NCBI GenBank assembly: GCA_010909165.1
Contig: VJWM01000193.1
Coordinates: forward strand, 351,058 to 415,057
From: Anthoceros angustus
Lineage: Eukaryota; Plantae; Anthocerotophyta
Length of the DNA stretch: 64,000 nt
Direction of reading: 5' to 3'
The position numbers were made by a program, and so were the translations under genes. Each line of letters starts with the position of its first letter. The first letter of the stretch is position 1. Of this stretch, positions 7,171 to 31,780 are shown in pieces. The notes under the pieces are model-generated. The model saw only the letters and a program-made list of their open reading frames with translations. It searched no databases and was not told the DNA's origin.

Positions 7171-8880
7171 TGAAGCGCATTTTCAGCTTTGACCAATGCA
7201 CTGAATTAATGATGTCGGATTGAAATTGTCACTATGCAAGTGTTAATTGATGATGAATTGAATTGATGTCGAACATGGCTAATCAGTGCCCGTTGTCCAT
7301 CCAACATCCGATTGTGGGCACTTTAGCAAAGAGGACCGTTTTTAGATAGAAGCTAAACATACAGTTCAAACTGTTGCCACCAATGTGAAATTAGCTTATA
7401 TTCCTTGGGAAATATGATTTTCTTGCAGGTGAAGCATCAAATTCAATGTTTCTGACAAAGCTATTAAAATGGGACATCTAGAATCGAAAAGGAGATAGAA
7501 AGAATAAGGTATTTCCCACATCCGCAAATAAATACAAAAAACTACAAGTAATAGGGTGTGAAAGCTACATAATATTTTAAATTCATTAAGGGAAGTCGAT
7601 CCCCCATCCGGACACTGATCCACCCTCTCGGGTTAACTGTGACTTCGGATCCGGACGACTGATGGACATTGATGAGACTTATCAGCTGAGCAGGGATGCA
7701 AAAGCGGCGAGTGAGGAGTATCTTGCCCATAGTGCCCAGTCCATAGCAGTCCTGAGGCAAAAGATTGAGGTGTCCATACATAAATATATGTCTTTGTGGG
7801 GCTCGAGGCCCAAGGCTTCCTTTTCTTGGTAGTAAGGTTGGCTTGTAATGGGGGTTGATATTAGACCATGAGCACACCCATGATCCGCGAGGGATTGTGA
7901 GCATCCTGGTTTGCATCATTTTGGTGCGAAAACGAAAAAGGCTATGTGAGCCTGTGCCCTGGCAGCCTTGCTATGACGCAACTGGTTAGCATTCTCCTCA
8001 CGTGGAGCGATACCATTCTTTGGAGAGATATTCACCTTATTCGTTGCTTCGTGTCTGCAAATCTGTTGCTTACATTAAATTAATGTAAGCAACAGATTCT
8101 TGGCCTTGGCCATAAATGCACTCTTGGCCTTGAGCTCATTAATGTAGGTCCGTTGCTCTTGAGCTCATATATCCGCCCCGGGCCCATACCCACAATACTC
8201 AAGCCGCCTATGTTTCTGGACAATCGTGACCCGAGGCCCGAGGGCGTTCGTACATCGTACGATCTAGATCCCATATGGTCATCATGCAATTCAAGCCACA
8301 CCACAACACTGACCGTTTGAGAAACTCTACTTGCCATCTTTAGTCCTCTGTGTTCACGATTTAGTGAACTCGCGCGGAAGTTGGCCAAAGCCAAATTAGG
8401 GCTCATTTTACAACTTAGACTTCGAGGTGTACACACACTGATTAGTATTTGCTTCAGGTATGACAAGAAGATAGACTTTGCAAAAAGATGACTAGGTGAG
8501 TTGCAGCTCTTTCGTAACAACAACTACAGAATCGAGGGACAACTTTGGATAGACACCTTGCTTCTTACTGAGCAAAATGTGAGCCAGTCTTTTTGTCGAT
8601 CATGAAGTTTGTTCAGAATGAATGCAAGGGACTTGTCACTATGCACTCAGTACAGTGTGAAGTTGCACAACAAAGAAACTCAAAAACATACAATTTAAGC
8701 AGGATGTTTAGTTCACACATAGGTCAGCGAGTGACATGACCAACTCGAGCGTTGAGAGCAAGAACAATTAGCAAAATGACAGCCATAGTGAAGTCACAAA
8801 ACAAAACACGACGAGATTGACATGAAAGCATGCCTCCTCTACAATTCTCTCCTCTATCATTTTTCTTGTGCATTCTTATA

Positions 8881-9360
8881 CGGTCGGCCCCCCCTAATTG
8901 GGAACTCTATAAATGGGATTCCTCTCTAAATAGGACCTCCCATCCTACTCCCTTTAGTTTACAATGTAAAACATGATTGGGACCTTTTGAAACATACATT
9001 CATGTTAGTTTCACCTCCCCAAATGAGATTTTCAATTTTTTTACTAAAAAAATTAAAAAATAAAGAAAAAAAAAATCGATACTCTTAAGCTAAGCTTTTC
9101 CTTTATGATAGGTAGAGGTTTTTTAATGCTGATTACAGAGAGTGCTAGCTTTCAGGCAACTATATAGAGAAGTGGTAAAAATTATTTTTAGTGAAACCTA
9201 TCAATCAAAATTTAAATTATCTTTTTAAAGTACTTTTTAATTTTTTTAATTTTATGATATTATTTTATTATTTTTAAATAGGAAAAATGTAATCGGGATA
9301 CCTCCCTTAATGGGACCTCTAAAGGCACTCCGAACAAGTCCCGATTAGGGGCGTGGACTA
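8881..9360. mobile_element. Tc1/mariner (pogo-like) MITE, copy 1, internally deleted
   Basis: Starts TA|CGGTCGGCCCCCCCTAATTGGGA and ends CCCGATTAGGGGCGTGGACTA; colinear with 26007-26525 and 49543-50083. Confidence 0.85.
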
Positions 9361-9826
9361 CATGTAGTATGAAGAAAACAGAATCCAAAGTACAACTTAT
9401 GGAGCCCCAAGAGTTCGAGACAACGAAGGCCGAGTAATCAAGAAGTAGGAGTAATCAGGTAATGGGGACAACCCGGGGGCGTGGACGCGAGTGCCGGGAA
9501 GCGCCCACATGCCTTGACATGCGTTGGTTGTATGTAACATGGTGCATGCGGTGGCATGCAAAGCCATATATACCGGGGGCATCGGTGGCGGGCCCCACTG
9601 CTTTGGGAGGCGCGTGCGTTTACTTTGTAAGGCAAAATAGCCTCTAGTGTTGCGTTGAGGCTGGACGATAAAGGGCAGCGCTTTCCCAATTTCTGAGTTT
9701 CACGCATGCTCGGGGCCGGCGATAGGGTTTCTTTCTTATAGACCGACCCAGCATTCAATCTCACAGGAAAGGGGCCTGACTCTTCATCGCCAGCGGACCG
9801 AGCAGTAGGGCGATCCGACAGTCAAG

Positions 9827-12096
9827 ATGCCGGGGGGAGGGTTTCGCGTGTTGCATCTGGTAAGGCCCTTCCTCTCCGTGCTGCCGGAGGTGCAGACGGC
9901 AGAGCGGAAGGTCCCCTTCAGGGAGAAGGTGATGTACACTGTGGTGTCGCTCTTCATCTTCTTGGTCTGCAGTCAGCTGCCGCTCTATGGGATTCACACG
10001 GCCACGGGCTCAGATCCCTTCGTCTGGCTGCGAGTCATCCTGGCTTCCAACAGGGGAACTGTGATGGAGCTCGGTATCACGCCAATTGTCACCTCGGGGC
10101 TGGTTATGCAGCTCCTCGCCGGCTCCAAGATCATTGAAGTGGACAACAACGTCAAGGAGGACCGGGCTCTTCTGTAAGTCAGCTCAATTTGTAGATCTCC
10201 GAGTTAGGAGCCTCTAAATGTGACGTGTCTGGTCCTGTCAGGTTAGAGCGGCTCTAGATCTGCAGTTTGTGGCTCTGGAGGGAGGGTTTTACTGCCTGAT
10301 TTGCTCTGGACGGAGACACCGCTTCCCTTCTCTTCTTACTGCTTTGATTCCCTCTTTTAGTCCTCAGTACCACGAGTTTGAGGTCTCGGATGTAGTGAAT
10401 CGGTAGAAAGCTTCTCTAATTCCTCGGATCCAGTAATCGTTTGCTGGTTGGGAGCCACATGCGCTAGATCTTGAGCCTAGGGTCGCTGCGCTTTGATCCG
10501 TCCTGCATGTTCGTGTTCTGTGGCAGAAATGGTGCCCAGAAGCTCTTGGGAGTGATGATCACTATTGGAGAAGCCGTAGCGTATGTTCTATCTGGGATGT
10601 ACGGGGATGTCCGAGATCTTGGAGCTGGTAATGCCATTCTCATTATTGCGCAGCTATTTTTCGCTGGCATCATCGTTATCTGTTTGGACGAGCTCCTGCA
10701 GAAGGGATATGGTCTTGGTTCTGGGATCTCCCTGTTTATCGCCACCAACATCTGGTACGAATTCGGCTGTTGCTTGCAGAATGATGTGCAGCTCACCTTG
10801 TCGCTTCACACTTTTCTTGCTGTGCCTCTGCATTACGCGCTGTTGCCTTTTTTTCAAGGGTTCTTATCATAGCTTGCTGTTTTGCCAGTGAAAACATTAT
10901 CTGGAAGGCGTTCAGTCCTACCACCGTCAATAGTGGTCGTGGTGCTGAGTTTGAAGGAGCAGTTATTGCTCTTTTCCATCTCTTGATTACCAGAGCGAAC
11001 AAAGTGCAGGCGCTGAAAGAGGCGTTCTACAGGCAGAACCTTCCCAATGTTACCAATCTGCTGGCGACAGTCATCGTCTTTCTTATCGTTATTTACTTCC
11101 AGGGTTTTCGTGTTGTGCTTCCTGTGCGATCGAAAAGTGCCCGTGGACAACAGGGCTCGTATCCTATTAAGCTATTCTACACCTCCAATATGCCCATCAT
11201 CCTGCAAAGTGCCCTCGTCTCCAATCTGTACTTCATCTCCCAGGTGCGTGCACACCCCTGCTTTCTGTATGGGCTTGGGAGTCTTAGCCACTGTCTTGGA
11301 GCTTCATAGCTGATGGTTTTTGCATTCAGTGACACTCCTCGCCTCGTGATGTGTTGCAGCTGTTATATAAGAAGTACGGAAGCAACTTTATTGTTCAGCT
11401 CCTTGGGAAGTGGAAGGAGACTGAGTACTCATCCAGTGGTCAGCTTTTCCCTGTAGGCGGCCTTGTGTATTACATCACACCTCCAGCCAGGTAAAGGCTC
11501 GTATGAGTGTCCTTGCATGCTGAACAGGTTTTGTGCATCTGAGGTTTTGTGTCGCTTTATGGGCCTTTGAACATGTTTCTGTTGGTGTTGCAGCTTGAAG
11601 GATATTGCGACCAACCCTTTCCATGCGTTGTTCTATCTGACATTTATGCTGACAGCGTGCGCCTTGTTTTCAAAGACTTGGATTGAAGTCTCTGGCTCAT
11701 CAGCTCGTGATGTTGCGAAGCAACTGAAGGTTACCTTCCTCGTCTGCAATCCCAGCCCTTGTGACTGCGTTTTTATGCCAAATAGTCGCTGCTTATGGTC
11801 ATGTATGTGGACCGGAAATCTCCAGAAACTGATTTCTTACTGCTTGCTTTGATCAGGAGCAACAAATGGTGATGCCTGGACACCGGGAATCCAATCTTCA
11901 AAAGGAGCTGAATCGGTACATCCCAACTGCAGCCGCATTCGGTGGAATGTGTATTGGTGCTCTGACCGTTGTGGCGGACTTTATGGGCGCTGTGGGATCT
12001 GGAACAGGCATTTTGCTTGCTGTGACCATCATATACCAGTATTTTGAGACTTTCGATAAGGAAAGAGCAACCGAGCTCGGATTTTTTGGCTTCTAG
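9827..12096 (+). CDS. SEC61A: Protein transport protein Sec61 subunit alpha, conserved copy; exons 9827-10173, 10527-10754, 10889-11243, 11360-11490, 11594-11729, 11857-12096 (478 aa)
   Basis: [91 protein letters not shown]; five GT-AG introns; spliced length 1437 nt, in frame. Confidence 0.97.
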
Positions 12097-13027
12097 GGTT
12101 GAGAGGTCACAAGATGAGTTCATGCTGGCGCTCAGTTGGAAGGTGCAGTTGAACTAGGTTCAAGCAGGATCTGCTGCTGTAACCTTATATCTACCAATAC
12201 TTGGAAACTTTTTGACAGGGGGGGTCAGGTATTTTGGCTTCGAAGGCACAAGGGGGAGCCGGGTACGTGCACGCAAAGTTAGTCGGAAGGTAGCTTTGCA
12301 GTTGAACACCAGTGCAGGCTGGGTCCTTGGCTGGTTGTGAAGTGGCAACAGGTGTTGATCAGCTTTAGGCCCAACCAATCCGGAAGCCGGAAGTGGAAAC
12401 CGCGAGTGACTCATGTTATGTCGGTTTGTTTCTGACGTTGGAATGAGCTGCGGCAGATCTTGCTACATGTGTGAGTGAACTCAACGGTGGGCCTTTCTCC
12501 TCCTTTGCTGGGTATCATTCTTTTAGTTTTTCGTCCATCAGTTGCTCTCTTGAGCCGGGACCAGTTAGTGTTGGAAATTAGAGGATCTTATAGAGACGAG
12601 TAGTGAGGGCCTGTTGCCCATACCATCTCCAGTTGTCCAGAATTTTGGGCGTCTGGCGGTTCAGTCACTTGCGTAGAGTCACTCGCCACATTCTATACCG
12701 CCTTCATGTGGGTTATGTATTTTGTCGGGCTCGGAGGTCTCCGAGCTTTGTCTTGTGGAAATACTTATACAGTCCTCCTACCTCCTTGTAAGCAAGCTTA
12801 TGGGCCCAGACATAAACTCATAAACTCCTACCTCCACTCCCTGCATAAGCAAGCTTATGGAATCCTATGGGCCCAAGGTTGCGCATAAGCCGTGGAGCTT
12901 GAATCTCTTGACCAGCCAAGGGCCAATGCTGTGTACAGCAAGTTGTGCATATAAGGCATTTGCAAGACACGAAGGCACTGAAGTAAGAAAACACAAAACT
13001 AGAACCCGATGCGCAGTGTGAAGGGTG

Positions 13028-13094
13028 ATGTTATCGATCCACTGTATGTTATCGATCCACTGTATGTTATCGATCCACTGTATGTTATCGATCC
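13028..13094. repeat. 18-bp tandem repeat (ATGTTATCGATCCACTGT) x about 3.7
   Basis: Directly visible; lies at the left edge of the duplicated SPPL upstream region. Confidence 0.9.
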
Positions 13095-13353
13095 CTGTTC
13101 GCCTTCTCGTGGCTTTCTTCCCTTAGAAAACGCGCGAGCCAGCGGCCTGCTTCCTGCAATGGGAGCCACTTGGACTGCTGTTCTGGAAAGATTCTGCACA
13201 TTTGACGTTGCGCAGGAACGCAATTGTCCAATCCATGGGGTTTACACGCTAAAACTGAGTTGGGAGGGCTCGGCATCCATCCGATTACTGCAAGTACGTG
13301 TTGGCTCGTTACTGGGATGATTCCCTGACCTTTAGGCGTTTTCGAAGTAGACC

Positions 13354-15290
13354 ATGGGGATTTGCTCTCCTGGCCGGCAGCTTCATGGCGGTTCTGCAAC
13401 GGGGCTCTTGTAGGTTATGGTCTTACTGACTGCCTCGCTGCTGCTGCACGCCACGGCCGGGGACTTGTCGGATTATGACGATCCGCCCTCCTTGGTTGCG
13501 AAATGATCTTGTCCTGGGAGGTGCTTGCATGCATGCATGCGGATTCCTGGGTGCATTGCCGGGTGGCAGTGCACTATATGTTTGTTGGTCCTTGGTTAGG
13601 TGACAACAGGCGTTGTGGTTTCACCAAGGAGTTGGAGCCCACTGGAAAGGCTCGACTCGGTGCAAGGCTGGATGGCTTATTTGTGCAGGTTGCCGAGTGG
13701 GAACATGTTGTGGGATGCTAGGCGAAGCTTGGGAATTCGGTTAACGGGAAACAGGGGAACCAGTATGTTGGAGTCAGTGCATAGTTCGTTAGTCAGATTC
13801 CAAGCTTCTTTGTGGCCAAGCTGTCCAAAACCTGGCGTGCATCTTCCAGTTCATTTTACGTACTTGTCCACCAGGCAGGTGCCCACCATCACGTTCTCCA
13901 GCAGTCCTCTTTCGACAATCAGCGAGTGCAGCTGCAGCGAGTTGCCCTTCCGTAATGCCCCAGTGCTTGCAGAGGCCTTTTGAAGGCAAGCAAAAGTAAC
14001 ATGGCTACCCAAAATCAGCCCCTCCTGCTCCATTTGTCCATACACAATAAGTGCCTCGTGTCCCAGCAGGAAGAAGATGCTCATAGCATAGTGCACCTCT
14101 CTTCGTCGCAGATCCTGGGGAATGGTGCACAAATATTACAACCAAGGCAAGGAAGCGTGAGAAGAAGTGTACCCGATGCTGTAGTGCTTGCCTTGGAGGT
14201 GAGAATTGACGGGGGGTTTTGTTTCTAGGAGATCGCATTGTACGTTCACAAAAAGGCTTGAATCGCACAGCGGGCTGGAGCAAGAGCTTGGTTTGTTGTT
14301 AATGACCAATAAGGTGGTGACTGTAATTGCTGTGTTGGTTATTAGTGTGAATGCATTCCTACTTATCACCAACGACTTGTATTGCTTTTGTGTGGGATGT
14401 TAGGATGTCTGTGCAAGACGACGTGTGAGGATAACGATACCGGTGTCGATATCACCATCCCTGTGGCGATGTTGCCCTAAGATGGTGGAAGCCGTCCGAA
14501 AGCCCATTTTGTGGCAGGGAGCAGGGGGTATGTGCAGTATTTCTTCTGTTGTACAACATGTTGGATTTTTTTAGTTTTAGTTGCTGCGGCAGTGTTATAT
14601 TCCTCCTCTTTACCCTGTGTTTACAGTGAGAGTTCTTCTTTTCTCCCCAACTCAGCCAACCCAACTTTTGGATGATGCGGAATGTTTCTTGTGCTTGATG
14701 GCAGTTGTTACTACCCAGAGGTCTTCTTCTCGGTCTCCATGGTGGAGTGAAAAAGAGTCAAAGAGTGAAGTTGTGCTGATGGGCGTTTGGAATGTCAGCT
14801 TATATCAGAGAGCCGATCTGCTTGACTTAGCTGATAGGAATATGCGTGCATAGTGACCACCACCGACCGGAGCTGCTCTCATCTGAATTCTGCTCTCCTT
14901 ATGACATCCCAATCTCTGAAAACTACCGAGAGCAGACATCTCACTTAGTCACCGTAGAGGAGTCCTGGGTTTCCCCTGAGGAGTTTCTAGTGCTCCATTT
15001 TGATTATTGCCGTCTAATGCGTTCAGCAGGTTCTTAATGCAGAACTTTCAAAAGTGTGTGGTGTCACTTTGGTCAGGGTAACTAATCTGGTTTTCTGGGT
15101 TTTCCACCTGGTGGTTTTCCACATGGTTCATACCGACGTCCGAGGACAAAATATGATATTCCGTGTACTGCGTTTAGCAGGTTCTCAATGCAGGGGTTTC
15201 AAGCGTGTGTGGTGTCACTTTTGGTCAGGGTAACTGATTTGGTTTTCTGGGTGTTGGTGGGTTTCCACATGGTTCATACCGACGTCCAAG
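13354..15290 (+). pseudogene. Truncated SPPL pseudogene (exons 1-5 and 7 of the 19338-22506 gene; exon 6 deleted, exon 7 region duplicated)
   Basis: Exons, introns and upstream region align to 19070-21060; AAG>TAG at 13782-13784, frameshifts, insertion at 13789-14064; no catalytic YD/GxGD exons. Confidence 0.9.
13789..14064 (-). pseudogene. PLS-class pentatricopeptide repeat (PPR) gene fragment inserted in SPPL pseudo-exon 2
   Basis: GHEALIVYGQMEQEGLILGSHVTFACLQKASASTGALRKG..LHSLIVERGLLENVMVGTCLVDKYVK...AWN matches consecutive P/L/S motif consensus; absent from the intact SPPL. Confidence 0.85.
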
Positions 15291-15588
15291 GACAGAATAT
15301 ATTAAGTATTTATACAGAGGTTATAGAAGTATATCGGTTAATTAGTTCCATGGTCTATATATGTACCTAGTGTGTAGTTATGTTGACAAGTCAGTCAGCT
15401 ATATGCTAGAACACTGGATCTACATATGGTTGTTGCAAAGATATTGGACCCATTTGTTGGGCTCTGTGCATGCCAAGGGCCAGCTGTAGGGTTTTGTTCT
15501 TAGACAAGTCGGACATTCAGTCTTAGAAGAAAAGGGACACAGTCTCTATCCCAGCAGGACTAAGCAGCAGGGCCATCTGAAAGATAAA

Positions 15589-17748
15589 ATGCCAGGGGGA
15601 GGTTTTCGTGTGTTGCATTTGGTGAGGCCCTTCCTCTCCGTGCTGCCGGAGGTGCAGGCAGCCCAGAGAAAGGTACCCTTCAGGGAGAAGGTGGTGTACA
15701 CAGCAGTGTCGCTGTTCATATTCTTGGTCTGCAGTCAGCTCCCACTCTATGGGATCCACACGCCCATGGGCTTAGATCCCTTGTATTGGTTGCGAGCCAT
15801 GATGGCTTCCACCAGAGGAACTGTGATGGAGCTCGGTATCACGCCAATTGTCACGTCGGGGCTGATCATGCAGCTTCTGACCGGCTCAAACATCATTGAA
15901 GTGAACAACAAGGTCAAGGAGGACCGGAATCTCCTGTAAGTCACACCTCAGATTGTAGACCTCTAAGTCCGGGGATTCAAAATGAGTGTTATTTTTGGGT
16001 GCTGTAGGTCAGAGTGGCTCTTTACCTGCACTGTGGCGTGAGGGAGGGTGTCTCTGGCTTGATTTGCTCCTAACTCTGTCCTTAGGTTCTATTGCCACAG
16101 TTCTCAGGTCTTGGATGCTGTCTGTCATGGCTTTGCTTTGATCCACCCTGATGGTGCTCTTGTGTGGCAGAAATGGTGCTCAGAAGCTCTTGGGAGTGAT
16201 GATCACTATTGGACAAGCTGTACTGTATGTCCTATCAGGGGCGTATGGAGATCTTGGAGCTGGTAACGCCATTCTCGTTGTTGTGCAGCTCACTGCTGCT
16301 GGCATCATCATGGTCTGTTTGGACGAGCTTCTTCAAAAGGGATATGGTTTTGGTTCTGGAATCTCCCTGTTCACTGCCACAAACATTTGGTACGGATTCG
16401 GCTGTTGCGTGCCAAATGTTATGCAGCTCACCTGTTGCCTCTATGCTTTATCTTTCATCTGGTGATATTGGTTGCTGCGCCTCTCTGTACCATGAGCTGT
16501 CTCCACGGTTCTTATCATTAGGTTTGCTGTATTGCCAGTGAAAACGTTTTCTGGAAGGCGTTCAGTCCCCGCACTATCAACAGTGGTCGTGGCCCTCAGT
16601 TCGAAGGAGCAGCTGTTGCCCTTCTCCATGCGGCCTTCTTCAGGATGGGATCGATACAGGCACTGAAACAGGCCTTCTTCCGGCAGGAGCTTGACAATGC
16701 CACTAATCTTCTGGCGACAGTCGTAGTCTTTCTTCTTGTTGTCTACCTTCAGGGTTTTCGGGTTTTGCTTCCAGTACAACACAAAAAGACTCGTGGACAA
16801 AAGGGAAAGTATGCTATTAAGCTTTTCTACACCTCCAGTATGCCCATCATGCTACAAAGTGCTCTTGTCTCCAATCTGTACTTCATGTCCCAGGTGCATG
16901 CACATCCTCACTATTTGTATGGAGTTCCAGGGGGTGTTAGTAAACTACCGGTGTTTGAGCTGCAACGCCGGTAGTGTGTGCATTCAGTAATACTTGTCTC
17001 CTGGCCATGTCTTACAGTTGTTACATAACAAATTTGGAGGCAACTTTTTCGTCCAGCTTCTTGGGAAGTGGAAGGCGGATGAGCAGTCATTCGGTGGTCA
17101 GCTTATCCCCGTTGGGGGGATTGTGTATTACATTACACCTCCAACCAGGTAGAAGCTCGTGCGAGTGCCTCTCCAAGAGTCCCTCTCCAAGAAGTGTTTT
17201 TGCATGTGAGAGCTTCAGTCGTGCTATGGGCCTCTAAATGTGTTAATTGTCCTTATTCGGTGTTGCAGCTTGGGGGATATCGCGTCCAACCCTGTCCATG
17301 CGATGTTCTATTTGACATTTGTGCTGACAGCATGCACCTTGTTCTCGAAGATATGGACTGGAGTCTCTGGCACATCAGCTCGTGATGTGGCGAAGCAATT
17401 GAAGGTAAGCTTTAGCAGTCAGCAATCCCAGCCCTTGTGACTTCAAATGGCCATGTCTGTGAATCGGAAATTCCCGGACACTGATTTCGTCATGCTTGGT
17501 GTGATTAGGAGGAACAAATGGTGATTCCTGGACACCGGGAATGCAACCTTGAAAAGGAGCTGAATCGCTACATCCCAACTGCAGCTGCGTTAGGTGGAAT
17601 GTGTATCGGTGCTCTGACTGTTCTGGCCGACTTGATTGGCGCTTTTGGGTCTGGAACAGGAATCTTGCTCGCTGTCTCCACTATCTTCCAGTATTTTGAG
17701 ATCTTCGAGAAGGAAAAAGTAAAAGCGCTCGGAGCTTTTGGGCTGTAA
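15589..17748 (+). CDS. SEC61A: Sec61 subunit alpha, divergent tandem paralog; exons 15589-15935, 16171-16389, 16539-16893, 17018-17148, 17269-17404, 17509-17748 (475 aa)
   Basis: Same five intron positions and phases as copy 1; all splice sites GT-AG; 1428 nt open with one in-frame 9-nt deletion. Expression is not demonstrable from sequence. Confidence 0.92.
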
Positions 17749-18883
17749 GGTTGAGAGGTGACAGGATGACCTCACTCTGCGCTCAGTTAGAAGGTGGCGT
17801 ATAACTAGGTTCAGGCAGCATCTGCTGCAGAAGCCTTCATGTACCAACATTTGTAAGTTTGGCTTCCTTCTACTGCATTAGAAGAAGCCGGGTAGGTTCG
17901 CGCAGAGCTAGATAGAAGGTGGTTCTGCAGCTGAATTGGTGACCAGTGCACGCTGGGCTGGGTGCCCGGCTGGTTCTGAGATGGCAACAGGGCTTCTTTA
18001 CCTGTTTGGCTGTGCTTTAACCTGCTGGTCGTGATTTACATGTACGTAGGTCTTTGGGCTTGGAGATGTATTGGAAATCTTTTGTACAAAAGAGCTGAGA
18101 CTTATGTTCCCAAAATGTCTCTCACCTACAGCACCTAGTGAGTCGAAGCTTTGGATCTGGGCACTCACAAAGTAGTAGTCTACCAGGGTGCAAAGACATC
18201 GATACTTAAGTAGGTACCTATTTCCTTCTGGGAATCCGGGGTTTAAGTAGCTGAACACATATGTTACAGGTAGTCTCTTCTGAGTCTTTGCAATTGCAAG
18301 ATCAAACATCTCCCAAGACGGAATGGCCACTTGTGCGATGTATGCTTCTTTCCCACACCCTTGTCTGCACGATCTCAAACCAGCGTTCGATATCGGATCG
18401 CTCATCAAACCCCTCGAATCACAGGATAAGAGGCGTCAATGATTTCTGGTCCCAACAAGAGGAGATCGGAACCCCAAAGGTTTCTGCGTGTACGAGTTCG
18501 CAATATGGGTAAGCAACTCTACGCTGCTCACGGATACAGATTTGCGAGTGTCACCGACGGAGAGGATCGAGTGCCACTTCAGGATCGGATCGCGCGCCAT
18601 CTTCGAGGTCCTAGACTCGAGGATTCTGAGAAGTCCTTGGATTGTGCATTGAAAATCTATGAAAATCAGGGTTCTGATTCTTCGCACTCGCTAGACGAAT
18701 TTCCTTCATCGGACTTGGTACTTGACCACTTGTACCATGTTGAAGTTGAGGGGAGGAAGACACACCGGCTACATATCGGCCTCAATTTGAAGAAGAAAAA
18801 TGAAGTGAAGCGTGAGGGGTGAGGGGAGGAAGGCACACCGGCTACATATCGGGAAGCACGTCGTCTCCAGGGACAGCACATCG

Positions 18884-18966
18884 CCTTCACACGACGGATT
18901 CAAATCGGCTTCACATGATGGATGCAAATTGGCGTGACATGACGGATGCAAATCGGCTTCACATGA
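18884..18966. repeat. Imperfect 24-bp tandem repeat (CTTCACATGACGGATGCAAATCGG) x about 3.5
   Basis: Directly visible; a ~30-bp direct repeat GGGGAGG..CACACCGGCTACATATCGG also occurs at ~18750 and ~18822. Confidence 0.75.
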
Positions 18967-19337
18967 GGCAGCAAGGGCCTGAAGTCGCCGACCAAAGCGT
19001 GAACCCAAAATTCCATTCGGAGCGAACCCAAAACTCAAGATAATTTATTTCGTCTTCTTTACATACACTCTCCCTTCGCGTGGCACTCTCCCCTCACTCA
19101 GAAACTGCGCGAGCCCAGTGGTCTCCTTGCTGTGTCGGAGCTTGCTGTGGGAGCCCCTTGGACTGCTGTTCGGGCAGGATTTCGCACACTATTCGCGCGC
19201 AGGACGCGCAATCGCCCATGGGATTTCCATGCTAAACCTGATTTCAAAAGGAGCTGAGCGTCCATCAGAGGACTGCAAATAAGTGGGGGTCCATTGTTGG
19301 GATGATCCCCTGACCTCTGACATTTCCGAAGCCGACC

Positions 19338-22300
19338 ATGGGGATCTGCTCTTCTGGCCGGCAGCCTCATGGCGGTCCTGCACCGGTGCTCGTGTGGCTG
19401 ATGATCTTGCTGACTGCCGCCCTGCTGCTGCTGCAAGTCGCTGCTCGGGACATATCTGACGATGACGATTCGCCCTCGGTTCCTGGTTGCGACAATGCTT
19501 TTGTGCTGGTAGGTGCATGCATGCAGGTTCGGGGATGCATCACCCGGTGGCTGTGCAGCAGACGCATACGTTTGGTGGTTCTTGGTTAGGTTACAGCATG
19601 CGTTGTGGTTTCGTCTAAGTGGTTGGGGCACATTGGAGATGGGAAGGCTCCAATTTGGAGTGCAAGGCTCCTTCTTTCAGTGGCTGAGTGGGAGCATGTT
19701 GTGGGATGATAGGTGAAAGTCCGGAATTGGGTTAACGGCAAAGAGGGGAACGAGTATGTGGGAGTCAGTGCAAAGTTCGGTGCCAAGATACAGAGCAAAG
19801 AAGAAGATGCTCACAGTGCACCTCTCTTCATCGCAGATCCTAGGGACTGTTGCGCAAATATCACGACCAAGGCAAGGAAGCGTTAGAACTGTACGCGCTG
19901 CCGTAGTGCTTGCCTTGGGAGTGAGAATTGACCGGTGATTTGGTCTCCAGGAAATCCCATTTGTTGTTATGGCTGAGAGGGGGGATTGTACGTTCACAAA
20001 AAAGGCTCGAATTGCACAGCAGGCTGGTGCAAGAGCTTTGTTAGTTGTTAATGACCAACAAGGTGAGGATCCTCATCGGTGTGCTGGTTATTATTGGGAT
20101 GGGCACTCTTTCCTTATCACTGACAACTGGTATGTGCTCTCTGTGTGGGATGTTCACAGGGCTCTATAAGATGGTGTGTGAGGAGAATGATACCTTTGTC
20201 GATATCACCATCCCTGTGGTGATGTTGCCCAAAGATGCTGGAACCAGTCTGGAAGCTAACGTTGTAGCAGGGAAGAGGGGTATGTGAAGATTCTGCCTCT
20301 GTAGCACACCATGCTGGAGCTTCCTTGTCTTAGTTGCGGGGGCAGTAGCTAATCCGTTTGCCCTGTGTTTCTAGTGAGAGTGCTCCTTTTCTCCCCAACT
20401 CGGCCGCTTGTGGATGTTGCGGAAGTTTTCTTGTGGCTGATGGCAGTCGGTACCATTTTGGGGGCTTCTTTCTGGTCTGCATGGAGTGCAAAAGAGGCAT
20501 CAATCCAACACTACAGAAGAGTGAAGGTGTGCTGATCAGCATGTGGAATGTGATCTTGCATCAGAGAGACAATCTGCTTGATCTACCTGTCGTCCAAATA
20601 TGCTTTACATGACAACCAATGAGCAGGGCTGCCCTCTTCTGAACTTTGCTATCCTCATTTTTCATGTCTGCTGATCAGGATGTTGTCGACCCCTGTGTGG
20701 ATGAAAGCCGCGAGGAGAAAAACGTGGTTGACATCAATGTTTATTCAGCAGTGCTATTTCTCGTTCTGGCATCAGCATTTTTGGTGTTGCTCTACTTTCT
20801 CATGTCGAAGTGGTTCCTTATGATTCTGGTGGTCGTCTTCTGTATTGGTGGAGTTGAGGTAATTTCCGCCCCTCAGTCTCTGAAAGGCTACCGATAGCAG
20901 ACTTCCATCGTAGAGTTCGGTTCTCCTGCAAGGAGTTTCTAGTGCTCTATTTTCTGTCTTGACATCTAATGCGTTTAGCATGCTCTTATTGCAGGGCTTG
21001 CAAACCTGTGTGGTGTCACTTCTGTCAAGGTAAATGATCTGCTTCCATGGATTTTGGTGACTTATGGGAAGTGGGTTACGGTTTATCTATTGCTGAAATC
21101 CCTGCAAAACAGAGGTGCCTTCTGCTTTGACCTTTACAGGTGGTTTACATGTACCCATGGTTTCTTGCTTGCTCCCCCAACCCTGCAGGTTTGCGCCCAG
21201 TTTAGCTTCCATTTATGTAAACGTACCCTTAATCGGGGACATATCAGTGCTCTCGCTTCTTGTTGCTCCTTTCTGCATCACATTCGGAGTGTTGTGGGCA
21301 GTATTTCGGCATCTCTCCTTTGCCTGGATCGCTCAGGATATTCTTGTAAGTTCTCATTTGGACGTCCTCTGTCTCACCATTTCCTGCCGGCTCCCTGTTG
21401 TCATAACTGACAAATCTTATTGCACTGTGTTTGTTCTCCAGGGCATTTCATTGATTCTGACAGTGCTCCAAATTGTGCAACTTCCTAACATCAAGGTGTG
21501 CTGTTGTAATTACTCGCCTCCATAGACACCTAGGTGTGTAGAATAGGCAACAGCCCGTGTTCTCTGTACTGCTTTTGTAACCATGGGCTATTGGACACAG
21601 GTTTCCACAGTGCTATTGAGTTGTGCATTCTTCTACGACATTTTCTGGGTGTTCATATCACCTTATTTCTTCCACGAGAGTGTGATGATTGTGGTAAGTA
21701 AATCGCTGATGTCTGTGCCCTTCTCTTACCGCGTCTCCTGCCGGTTAGTCCGATCCAAGGATTCTCATCTAGTGCCCATGCCAGGTTGCTCGAGGTGACA
21801 GAAGCGGAGGAGATGGTATTCCGATGCTTCTCAAGGTTCCCAGACTGTATGACCCATGGGGTGGTTACAGCATTATAGGTTTTGGAGACATTCTTTTGCC
21901 AGGCCTGCTGGTCTCCTTCTGTCTCAGGTAAGTCACCAGCTATGAGCTTGTTGCCAGTGATCGCAGAAGAGGCTGGATCATAATCATAACCCTTGAGGTA
22001 TCGCTGTTGCCATTTCGCAGGTATGACTGGGCAGCCAAGAAGAGCCTCTCGAAAGGATACTTCTTGTGGGCAATCATGGGTTACGGTTTCGGTAGGTCTC
22101 TACACCAGCCTTGCTTGCGCTCAAAGCCCACCAGCCCGAAATCCCATTTCGGCATCTGGACTAATGAGTACTGTGATCTTGGATCCTCTCCAGGCCTCTT
22201 CCTGACTTACGTGGCACTTAACCTGATGGACGGCAACGGTCAACCGGCGCTTCTGTACATCGTACCTTGCACACTCGGTAACAAACGCAACACCTCCCCA

Positions 22301-22506
22301 CTTCCTAACGCCGTGTGCATCTCCATCTGTTCCCACCTATAGCTAACCGGCATTCCACGTGTATAACGTACCCCGCAGGAACTGTGCTCTTCCTGGCCTG
22401 GAGGAGGGGGGAGATGAACCTCCTGTGGAGCCAGGACGACGAAGACGTGAAAGGGGAAGTAGAACCACCTCACACGGCAGCAGTACCCGCAGTCGGTGTA
22501 TCATAG
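19338..22506 (+). CDS. SPPL: Signal peptide peptidase-like protease with PA domain (peptidase A22B, plant SPPL2-5 type); 14 exons: 19338-19508, 19713-19871, 19951-20062, 20160-20279, 20375-20526, 20679-20858, 20995-21029, 21189-21345, 21442-21495, 21601-21693, 21785-21927, 22021-22091, 22194-22277, 22379-22506 (552 aa)
   Basis: Signal peptide, [14 protein letters not shown] motif [18 protein letters not shown], catalytic FYDIFWVF and [20 protein letters not shown]; exon lengths sum to 1659 nt in frame; intron 2 is GC-AG. Confidence 0.95.
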
Positions 22507-23879
22507 TTCACCCAGCACGTCACCCACCACGAGCTGACAATCGGGTACATAGACCCTCCTCCTGTTTTCTGCGGACGGGACTCCAGTACAGCGGCCCCGT
22601 CCATTCATTTCTGGACAGGCCTGTTCCCAACTTGGCAGCAGTAGCACCGGTTATGGGTGAGAGCCTCTCTTCTCTCACCCAAAACGGACACCCTTCGTAC
22701 AAATTATTGGAGGAGTCCAGAAATCCGTCCCTCCACCTAGAAAGGAGGCCCAAGGACGGATAGCACGGGCAGGCCACACGCTACTTTCGCCTTCTCCTCC
22801 TTTTATTCACTAGTTGTCGGACTGGGTTGCATCAGACTTTATTCGCAGGTGAGTGCGCTTTATTCCAGAGGAGAAAGGGACGTGGGTCTGGATATCGGCA
22901 CCCTAGAGCTCCGATGTCGGAACGGAATATTATTGGGTGCTGGCGTCCCTTCTGGATGGACGGGACGTGAGTCGAACACGCAACCTTCTGATCCGCAGGT
23001 AGACGGGACACCACTTCGTAATGAGTTTTACCTCTTCCCTTCCCGATTCGTGTGTCCACGCCCCACTCGTTTCGGACGAGCACTTGCGACGTCGTTCTCA
23101 CGTACTCGCCGCCTAGCGTCACTTCCAACTTCCCTTCTGCTTTAATGGAGGCTGCCAAATCTTCTGGAACCAATTGTCTGTGCGCATTGCATTGATTGAT
23201 TGGGTAGTGAAGGCCGGCGCGGCAGGTGGGTACACGTCCAGTCTGCCAGCCCAGCGCACCAGCTGGTGGTCTGGGGCCTAAAGCTGGCCTGTGCACAGCG
23301 GCGCGTGATCTTCTGTGGCGAGGGTGTGATAGGACAGCCCAGGGCAGCTCTGCCTCTGCCTCTGCCTCTGCCGCCATCACCTGCTCCTGCCCAATCGCAG
23401 CAGCGTCCCCCAGATCCGTGCCCGCAAATATTTTGGTGCAGTTTGGTAAGCCAAGCCTTGTCTCGGCCCCACCCACCTGCCCCCTTTGTATCTTCGGGAC
23501 CACTCTCCATGCAAGGAAGGGGAGGCTCGCTGTTGCTGGGCAGGGAGGGAGACTCCGTAGAGCATTCGGGATGTGTGCGTGGAAGGCATGTACATACGTG
23601 CAAGCGGTTGAGAGACTTCAAATAATTTCGTTTTTATGTCATAATTTTATAGTTAAATAAGTTTTATGAAGGAGGTTTGTGTGCGAGCGGAGGGAAATAA
23701 AACTCCACAGCAATCCTAAGCTGCTGTGGTGGATGACTCAACTCGGTCTTGACTAGAGGGGATGACTCAACCCGGATTGAGCTCGTTCGAGAAGGTTCGA
23801 GACTGGAGGATGAAAGGCTGAAACGCTTTCGTTATTCCACGTCGGGAAGGAAGTTTTGTAACGCCTAAGTTTCCAACAA

Positions 23880-24150: not shown

Positions 24151-26006
24151 GAGTTGGCACATTTCTCCGAAAGAGGTTTTATATGTCTTGAGTTTTTTTT
24201 TCGATGCGGCATGGCATGCAAGGAATACTACGTGGCCAATATCAAAATTTTTGAAGATCTATAATTCTCACCAAACACCACACGGCGTCCATGCCGGAGA
24301 AATACCATACTTCAACTTGAGTCTCCGGAAGAATTCCTCTCAAATTTATGAGTGGATAGTTTCTACTTGAAATATTAAGTTTGGAGCCAGGTTTCTAAGA
24401 GGTGGAGATGATTTATGAGCCTTACAAAAGTGGCTAATTTAGAGCTGTCATGTCACTGCACTTGGACTCCAGACTAAAGGGTCTAGTTTTGAGATAGTGA
24501 AGAGGGTTGGAGAGATGCTTGAACTTGAACTCCATATTGAAGGGTCTAATTTTGAGAGAGTCCAAGAGAGCTGGGTCTCAATATGGGCACATACCTATGT
24601 ATAGGGTAGAGAAATAGCAGCCCCTTGCGTACAGATGGTGTGTAAGCCTTAGAAAATTTTTGATCAGAGCTGCCTGATTGCTGAACTTGGACTCTAGATG
24701 GAAATGTCTAATTTTGAGAGAGTCGAGAGACCTGGAGTCCCGGTATAGTTATGGCAAACATCCATGCATACATAAGAGAAACATTGAGCCCTCTCCCCCT
24801 TCCTTTCTTCCTCGTAACTTTCTTTTTTCTCTTCTCTTTGCAGCTTGGAGAGAGGTGCCCCTTTCCTTGGGAATACTACATGACAATATACTAGTTTTCC
24901 ATCTGGCCAAGCTAGTTAGTGTGTAACTATGAAGATTCTTCTCCCATTTCTAGATATTAAACACAATAGAAAATATAGTTCTATTTCTTTCCTTTGCATC
25001 TTTTTGATAAAAATATTTAAATACAAAACAAAACGTCAACATAAGAGAGAGATATTGCATCTTTCCAATAAAAATATTGAAATAAAAAATAATGCCAACA
25101 TAAAAGAGAGATGACTCAAATACGGTATTAAAACCATAGATTAACCTCATCATATTAAGCCAACAAAAAAGAACCTCTAATCCAATAAAGAATCAGAACA
25201 AGAGCTATGATTAAAAGTTCTAAAGACAACATGAAAAACAAGAACAAGAACAACAAACAAGGACAAATAAAGATAACTATGAAAACAAGAAGACGTTCCA
25301 CAGTTTCAATAGGTAGCAAGGAATCATGATGATATTGATGTATATTGTGTAATAGATAGTACATATGAAAGACATACATACTATTGGATTTGTTTCTCCA
25401 TGACGTCCCCTTAATTCTGTCGCATTATGTGTCTGCCAAGGCAAAAAGTTTACCTGACCAAGGCATAAGGTTCACCATCACGCATCAAGGTGAAGCCTGT
25501 ACTGAAAATCGATTCTCTTTCACCCTGACAATAACCAAACAAAAAGCGAACACCGAGGAATAAATTGAACTGGGTGTTAAGAGTCCAGTCTCATTCTGGA
25601 GTTCCCCGACAATCCAACCCAACGACAGTGGGAACGAAAGAGATGAAGTGGACATGGTGTGTCACTTTGTGTACTTGCCTTGTTCCTTTCCCGACAGCAA
25701 CCAACAAGAGTGAATACATGTGCACTTGCCTTGTTCCGTTCCCGACAGCCACTAACAAGGTGTCGGGAACTAACAAGGGTGAAGACTTGAATTGTGTGAA
25801 TATGCCCAGACAACCATGGCTGGTGTCGCCATTGTATGTATGTACGCACACAACCATGCAATATGTCGCAATTGTCGCATAGAGCACTTGCCTTTCGCCT
25901 TTTGAGTTGTGATCTTCCGGCATTCATCATATGTACCAAAATTGTGGATTGGATGTGTACTTGTACTGCTATACTAGTGAATGTACATATTGAGGCTATG
26001 TACATA

Positions 26007-26525
26007 CAGTCGGCCCCCCCTAATTGGGAACTCTATAAATGGGATTCCTCTCTAAATGGGACCTCCCATCCTACTCCCTTTAGTTTACAATGTAATAAAT
26101 GGGATTTTTCCTAAATGATAATTGGGACCTTTTGAAACATACATTCATGTTAGTTTCACCTCCCTAAATGGGATTTCTATTTTTTTACTAAAAATTAAAA
26201 AGAAAGAAAAAGAATCGATTATTTGAGCACAATAGACTTTTAGGTGTGATTGAAGACTCTTAAGCTAAGCTTTTCCTTTATGATAGGTATAGGTTTTTGA
26301 TGTTGCTTAGAGAAAGCGCTAGCTTTCAAACAACTATATAGAGAAGTGGTAAAAGTTATTTTTAGTAAAACCTATCAATCAAAATTTAAAATTTTCTTTG
26401 TTTTTGGGTATTTTTGATTTTTAGATTTTATAATATTTTATTATTTTTAAATAGGAAAATATAATCGGACACCTCCTTAATGGGACCTCTAAAGGCACTC
26501 CAACCAGTCCCAATTAGGGGTGGGT
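26007..26525. mobile_element. Tc1/mariner (pogo-like) MITE, copy 2
   Basis: TA|CAGTCGGCCCCCCCTAATTGGGA ... TCCCAATTAGGGGTGGG; colinear with the other two copies; right TIR slightly eroded. Confidence 0.88.
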
Positions 26526-28749: not shown

Positions 28750-28843
28750 GGTTTTAGGTGTGAGGCAGTTCTAGTCAAGCACAGCTGGGTGGATTCGGTG
28801 TCCTCAAGCTCGATTGGGCGCACGTCGAACAAGTAGTCCAGCA

Positions 28844-31780
28844 ATGGAGTGTAACAGGGATGAGGCACTTCGTGCAAAGGGCATTGCTGAGAGCAAGTAT
28901 GCTCAGAGGGACCTTGCAGGTGCGAAGAAATTTCTAAACAAGGCAATGAGGCTCCACCAAGGCTTGGAGGGGCTCTCTCAACTCCATGCTGTGGTTGATG
29001 TGGAGCTTGCGGCCCAGCAAAAGGTTACCATGACCGACTCGGACTGGTATAGCATTCTCCAGACTGACCCTGTTGCTGATGAGGCAACAATAAAGAAGCA
29101 ATATCGAAAATTAGCTCTGGCGCTGCATCCAGACAAGAACAAATTTGTGGGTGCAGAGGCTGCCTTCAAGCTTATTGGAGAAGCCAATGCTATTCTTACC
29201 AACAAAGAGAAGAGACAGCAATTTGATTTGCGGAGAACTCTGTCCCTGAAGTCGGCTCTGCGGCAACCTGGAGCTTTTAATGGGCACGTATCACCTGGAA
29301 CAGATGTTCAGGAACCCTTTTGGACCATGTGCCCAGCGTGCAGGACTGAGTTCCAGTATTTGCGAAGGTATGTCAACCACCGTGTTGAGTGTGTACACTG
29401 CAAGGCTTCTTTCATAGCCACCATATGGCCCAGCGACCAATTTCGGTGGAACCAGCACACAGATGCCAACAAAGTGGCAGGAGGTTCCAATGGTTCAGCG
29501 GCTGACAAGACCCATCTTGGTACAGGGGCAGCAAATGCCTCCTTTCCTGCACCATTTGTTCATCCAGCAGCTGCAAGTGCAGCGAGGGAAGCAGGAACTG
29601 GCCAGAAATCCGAGGATGTTGTGCAGCAGACATATGCAAAGGTCAAGAGGGAAAGGGTTGAGGCTGAGAGGGAAGCAAAGAAGGTGTTACAGAGGGGAAG
29701 GAGGGGAAAGGATCAGGAGGAGCCGATCTCAAAGGATAAAATGCCAGTAGAAGATAATAATGAATCTAGCCAGAGGAAGAAGGATGATAACTTGCAGGAG
29801 AAGGTGTCGGATGTGAAGCAGGCATCGATGGAGGCAGAACCTGAGAAAAAGGCTAGGAAGTCACGGAAGAGGCCTGAGCAGAAGTCTAGCAAGTCAAGGA
29901 AGAGGTCAAGGAGGACAGGTGACGGCAGTCAACAGCTGGAGGAGGATGGTGGTGAAGAGGAGGAGGAGGAGGAGGAGGATGAGGAGGAGGAGGAGGAGGA
30001 GGAGGAGGAGGAGGAGGAGGAGGAGGAGGAGGAAGAAGAAGAAGAGGAGGAGGAGGAGGAGGATGCGATGGAGGAAGATGAGGATGAAGATTTCAAGGTA
30101 GAGGTGTCCAGTGATGGGGAGGAAGAAGAAGAACCTCCTACCAAGCTGCGTAGGTCACTTCGAAAGAGAAATAATAATGTTGCTTACACTTATGGTGATA
30201 CTGATGATGAAAAGGAGGATGATGAGCTTCTTAACTTCGTAGCTGGCAAGAATTCTAACTTGGAAGACAAAATAAATGTTTCAGCCGGTAGCAGGGCAGG
30301 GGCACCAAACTTTAGCAGCTCCACAGTTGCTGCAAATGGGAATTCCTCCATGCATGATGAGCAACAGAACACATCTACGAAGGTGGATGGGCAGTCCAAA
30401 AATCCAGGAAAGGCTCGTTCAGTGGATGGTATGGGGAATCGTCAGAGGAGTAATGGTGACTGTAAGGCAGATGGAGCCTCAAAAACTGACGAAGTGGCAG
30501 ATCAGGCAGTTGGGGGGGAGAACAGTGAATCCGAGTGGCAGGAGTATCTTTCCAAGGGTGACAAGAAAGAACGATGTGCTGTTAATCTGATTCATAGTAA
30601 AGAGGTCAAGGACAGCATGAGATACTGTCAGACAGAGCCTGATATTCCAAGATCGGGGGTAAAGGGAAAGCAGGTTGTGATAGAAAATATGTCAGCTACT
30701 ACTTTGGAGAGCTCCAGGAGGAAGGATGTGACAGGCATTATGCATGCCAATTTCTCTGCTTCCCCTGAAGGAGGAAAATTTGGCTTCAATATCAGGAACA
30801 TGGTTGAGGATTCCAAAGAGGAAGGAGGGGCTAAGTCCCGACAGCTCCGGCAGAGGAAGAATGTAGATGGGAATGGGACAGTGAATAGGAGCTCAGGAGC
30901 GAATGGACGGCAGCTGGAGCCAAAGTTATCATCAGGTGGAAGGGCGGTCGAGAAATCAAGCCCTTTATCTGCACCAGCTCCGAAGACAACATGTGTGACT
31001 TCTGCAGGAAAGCAGTCTTCCACTGCCCTGCCAACAACCCCTTCCTCTTGCCCTCCTTCCTTGAGTGAGGCTGATATTGAGGTCCCTGACCCCGATTTTC
31101 ACGTATTTGACAATGAAAGGTCAGAGACAGAGTTTGCTGAAGGGCAAGTGTGGGCAATTTATGATGATGATGATGGGATGCCAAGGTTTTATGGCAAGAT
31201 TGACAAAGTTGTTGTCTCTCCTTTCAAAGTGCGGATGCATTGGCTGGAGACATACAATCAGAGTGCCAAATGGGTGAATCACACTAAACTGGCGATACCA
31301 TGTGGGGATTTCAAGTTGGGCAAGTCTACTGATGTGAAGGCAGTTAACATCTTCTCTCATTTGGCCACGGTGGGGAAGGGTTTAAAAAACGTGCTGAAAA
31401 TATATCCCAGGAAGCAGGAGGTATGGGCCATGTACCAGAATTGGGAGGAGCAATGGCCAACTGCAAACGGAGAAGGGAGGAAGTATGACATGGTGGAGGT
31501 GATCAGCGATTTCAGTGAAGCGGAGGGTGTGAATGTAGCACCTCTGACCAAACTCTCGGAGTACAAATCTGTTTTCAGACGAAAGCCAGGTGTTGTGGAC
31601 TTTCATCCTGCAAAGCACCTGCTTCGATTCTCCCACAGAGTTCCTGCTTACAGATTGGCTGGCACCGAGGCAGAAGGATTATCCAGGGACTGCTGGAGCC
31701 TGGACACAGCATCCATGCCTAATGACCTCATGAATGCATCGCTGGGACCTGGACACAGCACCATGAATGCAGCCTCTTGA
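28844..31780 (+). CDS. Class C J-domain protein with zinc ribbon, poly-Glu tract and C-terminal DUF3444 (978 aa, intronless CDS)
   Basis: MECNRDEALRAK family start; J-domain DWYSILQ...KKQYRKLALALHPDKNKFVGAEAAFKLI; FWTMCPAC...CVHC; DUF3444 PDPDFHVFD...GQVWAIYDDDDGMPRFYG...IYPRKQEVWAMY...RFSHRVP...CWSLD. Confidence 0.95.
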   Translation: MECNRDEALRAKGIAESKYAQRDLAGAKKFLNKAMRLHQGLEGLSQLHAVVDVELAAQQKVTMTDSDWYSILQTDPVADEATIKKQYRKLALALHPDKNKFVGAEAAFKLIGEANAILTNKEKRQQFDLRRTLSLKSALRQPGAFNGHVSPGTDVQEPFWTMCPACRTEFQYLRRYVNHRVECVHCKASFIATIWPSDQFRWNQHTDANKVAGGSNGSAADKTHLGTGAANASFPAPFVHPAAASAAREAGTGQKSEDVVQQTYAKVKRERVEAEREAKKVLQRGRRGKDQEEPISKDKMPVEDNNESSQRKKDDNLQEKVSDVKQASMEAEPEKKARKSRKRPEQKSSKSRKRSRRTGDGSQQLEEDGGEEEEEEEEDEEEEEEEEEEEEEEEEEEEEEEEEEEEDAMEEDEDEDFKVEVSSDGEEEEEPPTKLRRSLRKRNNNVAYTYGDTDDEKEDDELLNFVAGKNSNLEDKINVSAGSRAGAPNFSSSTVAANGNSSMHDEQQNTSTKVDGQSKNPGKARSVDGMGNRQRSNGDCKADGASKTDEVADQAVGGENSESEWQEYLSKGDKKERCAVNLIHSKEVKDSMRYCQTEPDIPRSGVKGKQVVIENMSATTLESSRRKDVTGIMHANFSASPEGGKFGFNIRNMVEDSKEEGGAKSRQLRQRKNVDGNGTVNRSSGANGRQLEPKLSSGGRAVEKSSPLSAPAPKTTCVTSAGKQSSTALPTTPSSCPPSLSEADIEVPDPDFHVFDNERSETEFAEGQVWAIYDDDDGMPRFYGKIDKVVVSPFKVRMHWLETYNQSAKWVNHTKLAIPCGDFKLGKSTDVKAVNIFSHLATVGKGLKNVLKIYPRKQEVWAMYQNWEEQWPTANGEGRKYDMVEVISDFSEAEGVNVAPLTKLSEYKSVFRRKPGVVDFHPAKHLLRFSHRVPAYRLAGTEAEGLSRDCWSLDTASMPNDLMNASLGPGHSTMNAAS
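29954..30061 (+). repeat. (GAG)n/(GAA)n microsatellite encoding 36 acidic residues (35 Glu + 1 Asp)
   Basis: Directly visible, in frame in the DnaJ CDS. Confidence 0.95.

Follow-up and report, generated by a model that had tools for sequence, protein, structure and literature searches.

A spliced and fast-evolving tandem duplicate of Sec61-alpha in Anthoceros angustus

Two Sec61-alpha genes and a broken neighbour

The window, a stretch of 64,000 nucleotides of contig VJWM01000193.1 from Anthoceros angustus, carries two Sec61-alpha genes on its plus strand, referred to as copy 1 (9827-12096) and copy 2 (15589-17748); the Sec61-alpha and SPPL features below lie on this strand unless stated. Both belong to a tandem duplication of ~5.7 kb, in which 9704-15103 and 15468-21055 match in blocks of 73-79% identity (blastn). 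The duplicated unit consists of a Sec61-alpha gene and the 5' part of a signal-peptide-peptidase-like (SPPL) gene. Copy 1 is canonical, with 478 amino acids in 6 exons, and its five introns are all joined in sequencing runs X6 and X1. It is 93-94.5% identical to Sec61-alpha of liverworts, mosses and lycophytes and groups with none of these sequences in the tree, which points to a non-seed land plant. Just upstream of it, at 8879-9359, lies one of three copies (~80% identical) of a dispersed AT-rich element of ~500 bp, the others being at 26004-26520 and 49541-50082. Elsewhere in the window are a bZIP-containing frame (1421-3106) and a gene with DnaJ, zinc ribbon and DUF3444 parts (28775-31777) that holds a long poly-glutamate tract at 29905-30132.

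The SPPL gene of the first unit is a broken 5' remnant at 13087-15300, co-duplicated with Sec61-alpha, matching 19073-21059 at 73% and covered by unspliced contigs. Six frameshifting indels were counted in its exons 1-5, exon 6 being mis-aligned and therefore excluded from this count, although included in the codon-position tallies. The intron-1 donor is altered, and exon 2 is interrupted by an insertion of ~260 bp (13806-14066, minus strand), recognised as an alignment gap on which hundreds of contigs pile up, as if it were a fragment from a gene family with many copies. By its motif we take the insertion to be PPR-like; it has no Pfam match at E 0.05. The full SPPL gene lies at 19338-22508, with a PA domain and Peptidase_A22B (Pfam), its first eight exons open, splice joints in X1 and X6, and a 3' end read by eye. 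Each duplicated unit retains one conventional gene, and Sec61-alpha copy 2 is the odd survivor.

Copy 2 encodes 475 amino acids in six exons (15589-15935, 16171-16389, 16539-16893, 17018-17148, 17269-17404 and 17509-17748). As the initial annotation had it, the frame is fully open and the splice sites are conserved: the five GT..AG introns occupy the same positions as in copy 1. The Pfam domains Plug_translocon (56.9 bits, cut-off 22.1) and SecY (55.6 and 48.6 bits in exons 3 and 6, cut-off 32.2; 28.7 in a short exon-1 part) are both recognised. Its upstream and 5' UTR segment, 15468-15588, is homologous to 9704-9826 of copy 1 (blastn, 71% identity) and marks the duplication junction; the motif TAGGGTTT stands upstream of both copies, at 9723 and 15487. 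Identity between the copies is 71-80% in introns and 71-78% in UTRs. In the proteins, 111 of 475 aligned residues differ, and copy 2 lacks three further residues in the loop after TM3, its only gap against full-length Sec61-alpha/SecY. With helix limits taken from general knowledge of the fold, it is colinear over its full length, including all ten membrane helices. Polarised against 19 near plant and algal sequences, the 114 differing columns comprise 95 derived in copy 2 (the three-residue deletion included), 6 derived in copy 1 and 13 derived in both.

Contigs of five sequencing runs (X1, X2, X6, X11 and X19) of the 19 listed were examined, and X19 gave no match. These runs carry no RNA annotation on record, and splicing was read from joints at GT..AG. 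In X1, a contig of 1617 nt matches 16184-18297 letter for letter, copy 2's introns 2-5 being spliced out, and the spliced model matches five depth bins exactly. X1 leaves 15655-16183 uncovered, a gap that is uninformative because it is flanked by 31-mers identical in both copies. Contig depth in X1 is ~23 for copy 2 and ~374 for copy 1, values that are not an expression ranking. Runs X2, X6 and X11, from three other organisms, contain spliced copy-2 contigs with intron 1 joined, the X11 contig reaching about 410 nt ahead of the start codon. Spliced transcripts thus occur in four organisms, which dates the duplication to before at least these four diverged.

Of at least 106 difference rows between species, 33 were used for copy 2, and seven more were dropped as copy-1 contigs. 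The indels of the relatives' copy 2 amount, net, to one codon lost in exon 3 and one base at 17730; this base gap, found in all three relatives, affects no more than the final six codons, which belong to the conserved C-terminal tail. Also in all three, the aromatic residue after TM1 is replaced by leucine at 15748-15749 (contig-end sequence). Of the marks of a pseudogene (stops, frameshifts, lost splicing), copy 2 shows none in A. angustus, and the differences listed for the relatives give only the tail frameshift at 17730. The 64-kb window does not contain a motif read from the relatives' contig ends. No copy-2 orthologue appeared among the best 120 listed longer proteins for exon 1 and exon 3 queries (best 82% and 71%), which is weak evidence of absence. 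Over 17265-17760, X2, X6 and X11 hold extra contigs restricted to exons 5-6, with a depth that in some exceeds that of the full transcript; in X2 and X6, 226-315 unrelated letters precede exon 5, and in X2 and X11 there are two distinct 3' ends. These contigs likely represent a further partial duplicate or a chimeric transcript with TM8-TM10.

Rate, selection and the likeness to yeast

Copy 2 has changed ~16 times faster than copy 1, with protein branch lengths of 0.38 and 0.024 in the tree. Between the copies, dN is 0.14 and dS 0.36-0.40. Assuming an equal split of synonymous change between them, branch dN/dS with transition-weighted sites is ~0.7 for copy 2 and 0.09 for copy 1, and ~0.6 for copy 2 by another site count; the second codon positions of the SPPL remnant, at 0.17, are in line with the equal split. 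In a neutral point-mutation simulation the frame remained stop-free in 13/5000 runs at d=0.15 and 3/5000 at d=0.2. The 81 single-step changes favour residues used by 50 other homologues (18.1 against 9.5 +/- 1.3 for mutation only, 0/20000 simulations), and tolerant columns are preferred, with 9, 17, 32 and 47 changes in successive column-tolerance quartiles. Relative to neutrality, non-synonymous changes number 0.34x in residues 1-60, 0.61x in 76-193 and 0.69x from 289 to the end. The open frame together with the bias to tolerated residues indicates that the protein is still selected to fold as a channel.

Comparison between species gives a similar contrast of the two genes. Residue-changing differences make up 3 of the 31 coding differences listed for copy 1 and 19 of the 29 codons listed for copy 2, three of which sit in a gapped stretch. 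Copy 2 differs between species by 4-6% in exons 1 and 2 and by 14-17% in exon 3, and its differences are uneven across exons (chi-square p 5e-8, 5e-7 and 0.007). In exon 3, 11/353 bases differ in copy 1 against 60/350 in copy 2 (p=2e-10).

The initial annotation had counted about ten changes in copy 2 that match yeast, and had proposed convergence. The matches are there, and they are more numerous: of the 105 derived copy-2 sites, 61 have a non-ancestral residue in yeast, and at 16 of these it is the residue of copy 2. From mutation alone 7.0 would be expected (p=0.0004), and the matches are therefore not drift. When mutation is combined with the residues tolerated at each site, 15.6 are expected against the 16 observed (p=0.51), and the proposed convergence beyond tolerated residues is not supported. 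The site profile was built from 51 non-yeast homologues (50 for the single-step test), with Ssh1-like sequences and yeasts excluded. At plant-conserved sites, S. cerevisiae has 14/40 matches against 12.7 expected (p=0.35; binomial p 0.043). Pooled, the 56 other divergent homologues match at a rate of 19.4%, and five of them lie above the 26% of yeast. Two other budding yeasts rank first and near-first (22/68 and 20/69; binomial p 0.008 and 0.035), with p of 0.02 and 0.07 under a profile-only null; under the mutation x profile null, these other-yeast and conserved-site signals have p 0.13-0.50. The verdict against convergence leans on this last null. Seven diatom paralogs, mutually non-independent and with some states possibly ancestral, match yeast as often (22-29%), and five grass paralogs do so at 11-20%. 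The apparent likeness to yeast probably arises because selection on the channel fold filters changes to residues tolerated in Sec61/SecY.

Plug, pore ring, gate and loop 5

Every motif change that had been listed for copy 2 against copy 1 is present in the sequence. Alignment to the mammal-type sequence P0225 upholds the human numbering used for F62, V67, I68, Q127, M136, I183 and I292, and the yeast motifs that had been cited match PDB chain 6n3q_A and metagenome loci L002 and L008, which encode the same protein as judged by eye. The plug changes are F62L, V67A, I68M, L69M and N72T (15781-15813, by alignment). F62L is present in A. angustus and absent from the three relatives, which keep F. 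The tyrosine at human position 63, which had been read as a copy-2 change, is ancestral: it occurs in all green-plant sequences covering the site in a 138-sequence set, in the mammal and in yeast, and the valine of copy 1 is the derived state. This valine is encoded at 10020-10022, and the same codon is found in contig-end sequence of X1 and X2.

In TM3, alignment gives E127Q, A130L and M136A (16214-16243); E127Q, described as a yeast-type change, is present and not yeast-specific, mammals also having Q127. The pore ring has changed at I183T (16373-16375; yeast T185) and I292M (16849-16851; yeast M294), again by alignment. It reads I-V-I-T-M-L against I-V-I-I-I-L, with four canonical residues and two as in functional yeast Sec61p. 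Within a set of 227 sequences, copy 2 shares the pair T183 and M292 with just five yeast loci and two highly divergent proteins. Copy 2 keeps the polar cluster T86, Q127 and N300 and the ribosome-binding arginines R273 and R405 (yeast R406), the role of R273 being presumed here.

The view that plug, pore ring and lateral gate had been re-tuned holds in part. The plug, ring and polar cluster together show a weak excess, with 8/24 residues changed against 3.6 expected (p=0.015, unadjusted, for a set suggested by the same data), and the ring by itself has 2/6 against 0.6 (p=0.12). The lateral-gate helices show none, with 13/84 changed against 17.8 expected given column tolerance. The differences listed between species spare the plug (15784-15854) and TM3 (16201-16266); in exon 3 the difference amounts to 14-17%.

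The largest effect, which the initial annotation had missed, appears to be erosion of lumenal hinge loop 5 (human 194-240; 16555-16695). This is the fastest-changing part of copy 2, with 18/47 residues changed against 9.4 expected (p=0.0018, best of 20 segments whose limits were taken from general knowledge), and at none of them is the yeast residue acquired. Among 205 residues common to plants, mammal, yeast and diatoms, copy 2 has changed 11/31 in loop 5 and 14/174 elsewhere (Fisher p=0.0002). Of the six regions compared, the loop has 1.7x as many non-synonymous changes as neutrality would give (p=0.004), and its synonymous divergence is also raised (14.5 of 36.9 sites; between species, 4/19 of the codons listed at 200-239 are synonymous). 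It is still changing fast between species. Because synonymous divergence too is above average, lost constraint and positive selection are not separated by the rate data. Loop 6/7 carries nine changes.

Interpretation and known relatives

Taken together, copy 2 is probably a working, non-essential ER channel, a tandem-duplicated and spliced Sec61-alpha under relaxed purifying selection. Copy 1 would do the housekeeping, and copy 2 would thereby be freed to accept many amino-acid changes, which selection on the channel fold would filter toward the residues found at the corresponding positions of other members of the Sec61/SecY family. Many of these tolerated residues also occur in the divergent Sec61 of budding yeast, and this would give the appearance of convergence. 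The core remains constrained (the N-terminus, TM1-TM5, TM7-TM10, the polar cluster and the ribosome-binding arginines), and loop 5 and the TM6-loop 6/7 stretch change at or above the neutral rate. From its sequence, copy 2 is expected to be translated, to assemble with beta and gamma and to act as a channel.

The relaxed-selection reading is preferred to the neofunctionalised translocon with altered gating that had been proposed, of which an adaptive form is retained as a distinctly less probable option. This would make copy 2 a channel that opens more easily and independently of lumenal gating partners. The less hydrophobic ring (T183, M292) and the changed plug would loosen the closed state, and this would compensate for lost docking of TRAP and Sec63 on loop 5 and for the altered loop 6/7. 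TRAP alpha/beta and the N-terminus of Sec63 dock on Sec61-alpha at loop 5 (PMC9309488), and the loss there of 11/31 pan-conserved residues, against 14/174 elsewhere, speaks for the idea. The ring residues are I81, V85, I179, I183, I292 and L449 in mammals and V82, I86, I181, T185, M294 and M450 in yeast (PMC11695074). The yeast ring is less hydrophobic, and hardening it is harmless alone; combined with a broken contact between Sec63 FN3 and loop 6/7, it becomes synthetic-sick, with impaired growth, while the soft ring (M90/T185/M294/M450) tolerates the loss of that contact (10.1101/2020.12.14.422728). Copy 2 has two of these four soft-ring residues beside its nine loop 6/7 changes, and polar ring changes are reported to ease channel opening and relax signal fidelity (PMC3164448). 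The freedom of plug and TM3 from listed between-species differences, in a gene whose exon 3 differs by 14-17%, also fits. However, the ring excess is non-significant, the gate helices are not enriched, and with synonymous divergence raised in loop 5 plain loss of constraint fits as well. It is conceivable that copy 2 is a pre-loosened translocon opening without lumenal helpers for special clients or in a special tissue, with loop 5 under diversifying selection, although the odds appear to be against it.

The remaining readings are much less probable. Slow decay, in which copy 2 would be mainly read-through from the broken SPPL promoter, poorly translated and a future pseudogene after earlier constraint, is unlikely. 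Unspliced X1 contigs with depth 15-21 do span 13087-15654, including one (14704-15654) that bridges the SPPL remnant and the copy-2 start codon, and a leader from 13087 would hold 50 upstream ATGs, 16 of them within the bridging contig; the duplicated SPPL promoter may partly drive copy 2. The contigs cannot locate the RNA start, however, and copy 2 keeps ~120-140 bp of copy 1's upstream DNA. The difference to organism C, 9.3% (112/1201), is near the neutral level, the relatives are frameshifted in the conserved C-terminal tail, and the share of non-synonymous codons listed between species is far above that of copy 1 (19/29 against 3/31). Yet the body of copy 2 shows no stop or net frameshift among the difference rows listed for four organisms, its differences are concentrated by exon (4-5% against 14-17%), and its changes are biased to tolerated residues.

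Target-site resistance, by which copy 2 would serve as an inhibitor-insensitive back-up against natural Sec61 blockers, is slightly more doubtful still. M136 is indeed a cotransin-resistance position, as the initial annotation stated: M136T confers resistance that is dominant in heterozygous cells (PMC3913039), and copy 2 has A there, which differs from the reported substitution. Plug residues line the common inhibitor pocket (10.1101/2022.08.11.503542; PMC9984176), and yeast Sec61 has been suggested to bind cotransin less well (10.1101/2022.08.11.503542). On the other hand, ten contact or resistance positions (D60, R66, S71, E78, G80, P83, T86, V102, Y131 and N300) have stayed the same, and the two copies agree at residue 82. 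The gain of Q127 points the opposite way, Q127 being an inhibitor contact whose loss gives resistance in yeast, and loop 5, the fastest-changing part, lies outside the pocket parts named in the same source (10.1101/2022.08.11.503542). These positions come from the cited parts of 10.1101/2022.08.11.503542, PMC11695074, PMC7427319 and PMC9984176, to which a yeast scan of 84 mutations could add more; none of the resistance substitutions named in those passages occurs in copy 2. The sequence thus does not support the suggested toxin resistance. To our knowledge, no Sec61 inhibitor acts on such plants.

Horizontal transfer or gene conversion from a fungus, for all or patches of copy 2, has almost nothing in its favour beyond the 16 residues that match yeast. 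Fifteen of these are scattered single-base steps from the copy-1 codon, the five introns, UTRs and neighbouring gene are homologous to those of copy 1, and the protein, 74-76% identical to its best plant matches, falls among green plants, split from fungi by branches with 100/100 and 100/98 support. The tree placement and the introns common with copy 1 refute a fungal origin of copy 2, and local duplication, as had been proposed, accounts for the gene.

Canonical Sec61-alpha/SecY proteins (Pfam PF00344, PF10559; PDB 8b6l_A, 6n3q_A) resemble copy 2 in colinearity, plug domain, T86/Q127/N300, R273 and R405; copy 2 differs in the 105 derived residues that fall on its single young branch, in its eroded loop 5 and in the altered ring. 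S. cerevisiae Sec61p (6n3q_A; L002, L008) shares the 16 derived residues, including T185 and M294, but they arose independently, and the loop-5 residues lost from copy 2 are retained in yeast. Budding yeast also has Ssh1p, whose specialisation is co-translational. Like copy 2, Ssh1p (PDB 2ww9_A) is a diverged second Sec61-alpha beside an essential one; unlike copy 2, it is an old fungal duplicate, non-orthologous, and the Ssh1-like P0353 is 34% identical to copy 1.

Comparable too are the lineage-specific fast paralogs that grasses and centric diatoms carry beside a conserved copy. The highly divergent grass sequences P0370, P0239, P0345, P0322 and P0364 are from rice (Os09g0512000), Eleusine, wheat, Paspalum and Dichanthelium; the diatom clade P0227 and P0393-P0431 (Thalassiosira, Conticribra, Stephanocyclus) is ~58% identical to plant Sec61-alpha, with M at position 127 in P0227 and P0419. 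F62L, F258L and F437L recur in grass or diatom paralogs and in copy 2, and I183T recurs in rice and Paspalum. The grass paralogs have 40-50% identity and have lost N300, whereas copy 2 has retained the core and 77% identity to its parent. No published report of the A. angustus paralog was found in the literature searched, whose scope left subscription journals mostly outside.

These comparisons carry a caution, that matches to one divergent model organism are to be expected in any fast, still-functional paralog. Sec61-alpha is among the most conserved eukaryotic proteins, and copy 2 is a natural mutational scan of it with the unchanged parent adjacent as control. With the core maintained, loop 5, TM6-loop 6/7 and the C-tail are the parts from which constraint can be lifted. 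Of most interest for further work is loop 5 in combination with the soft ring. If independence from lumenal partners were true, copy 2 would offer a natural test of the coupling between ring hydrophobicity and Sec63/TRAP that is known from engineered yeast mutants.
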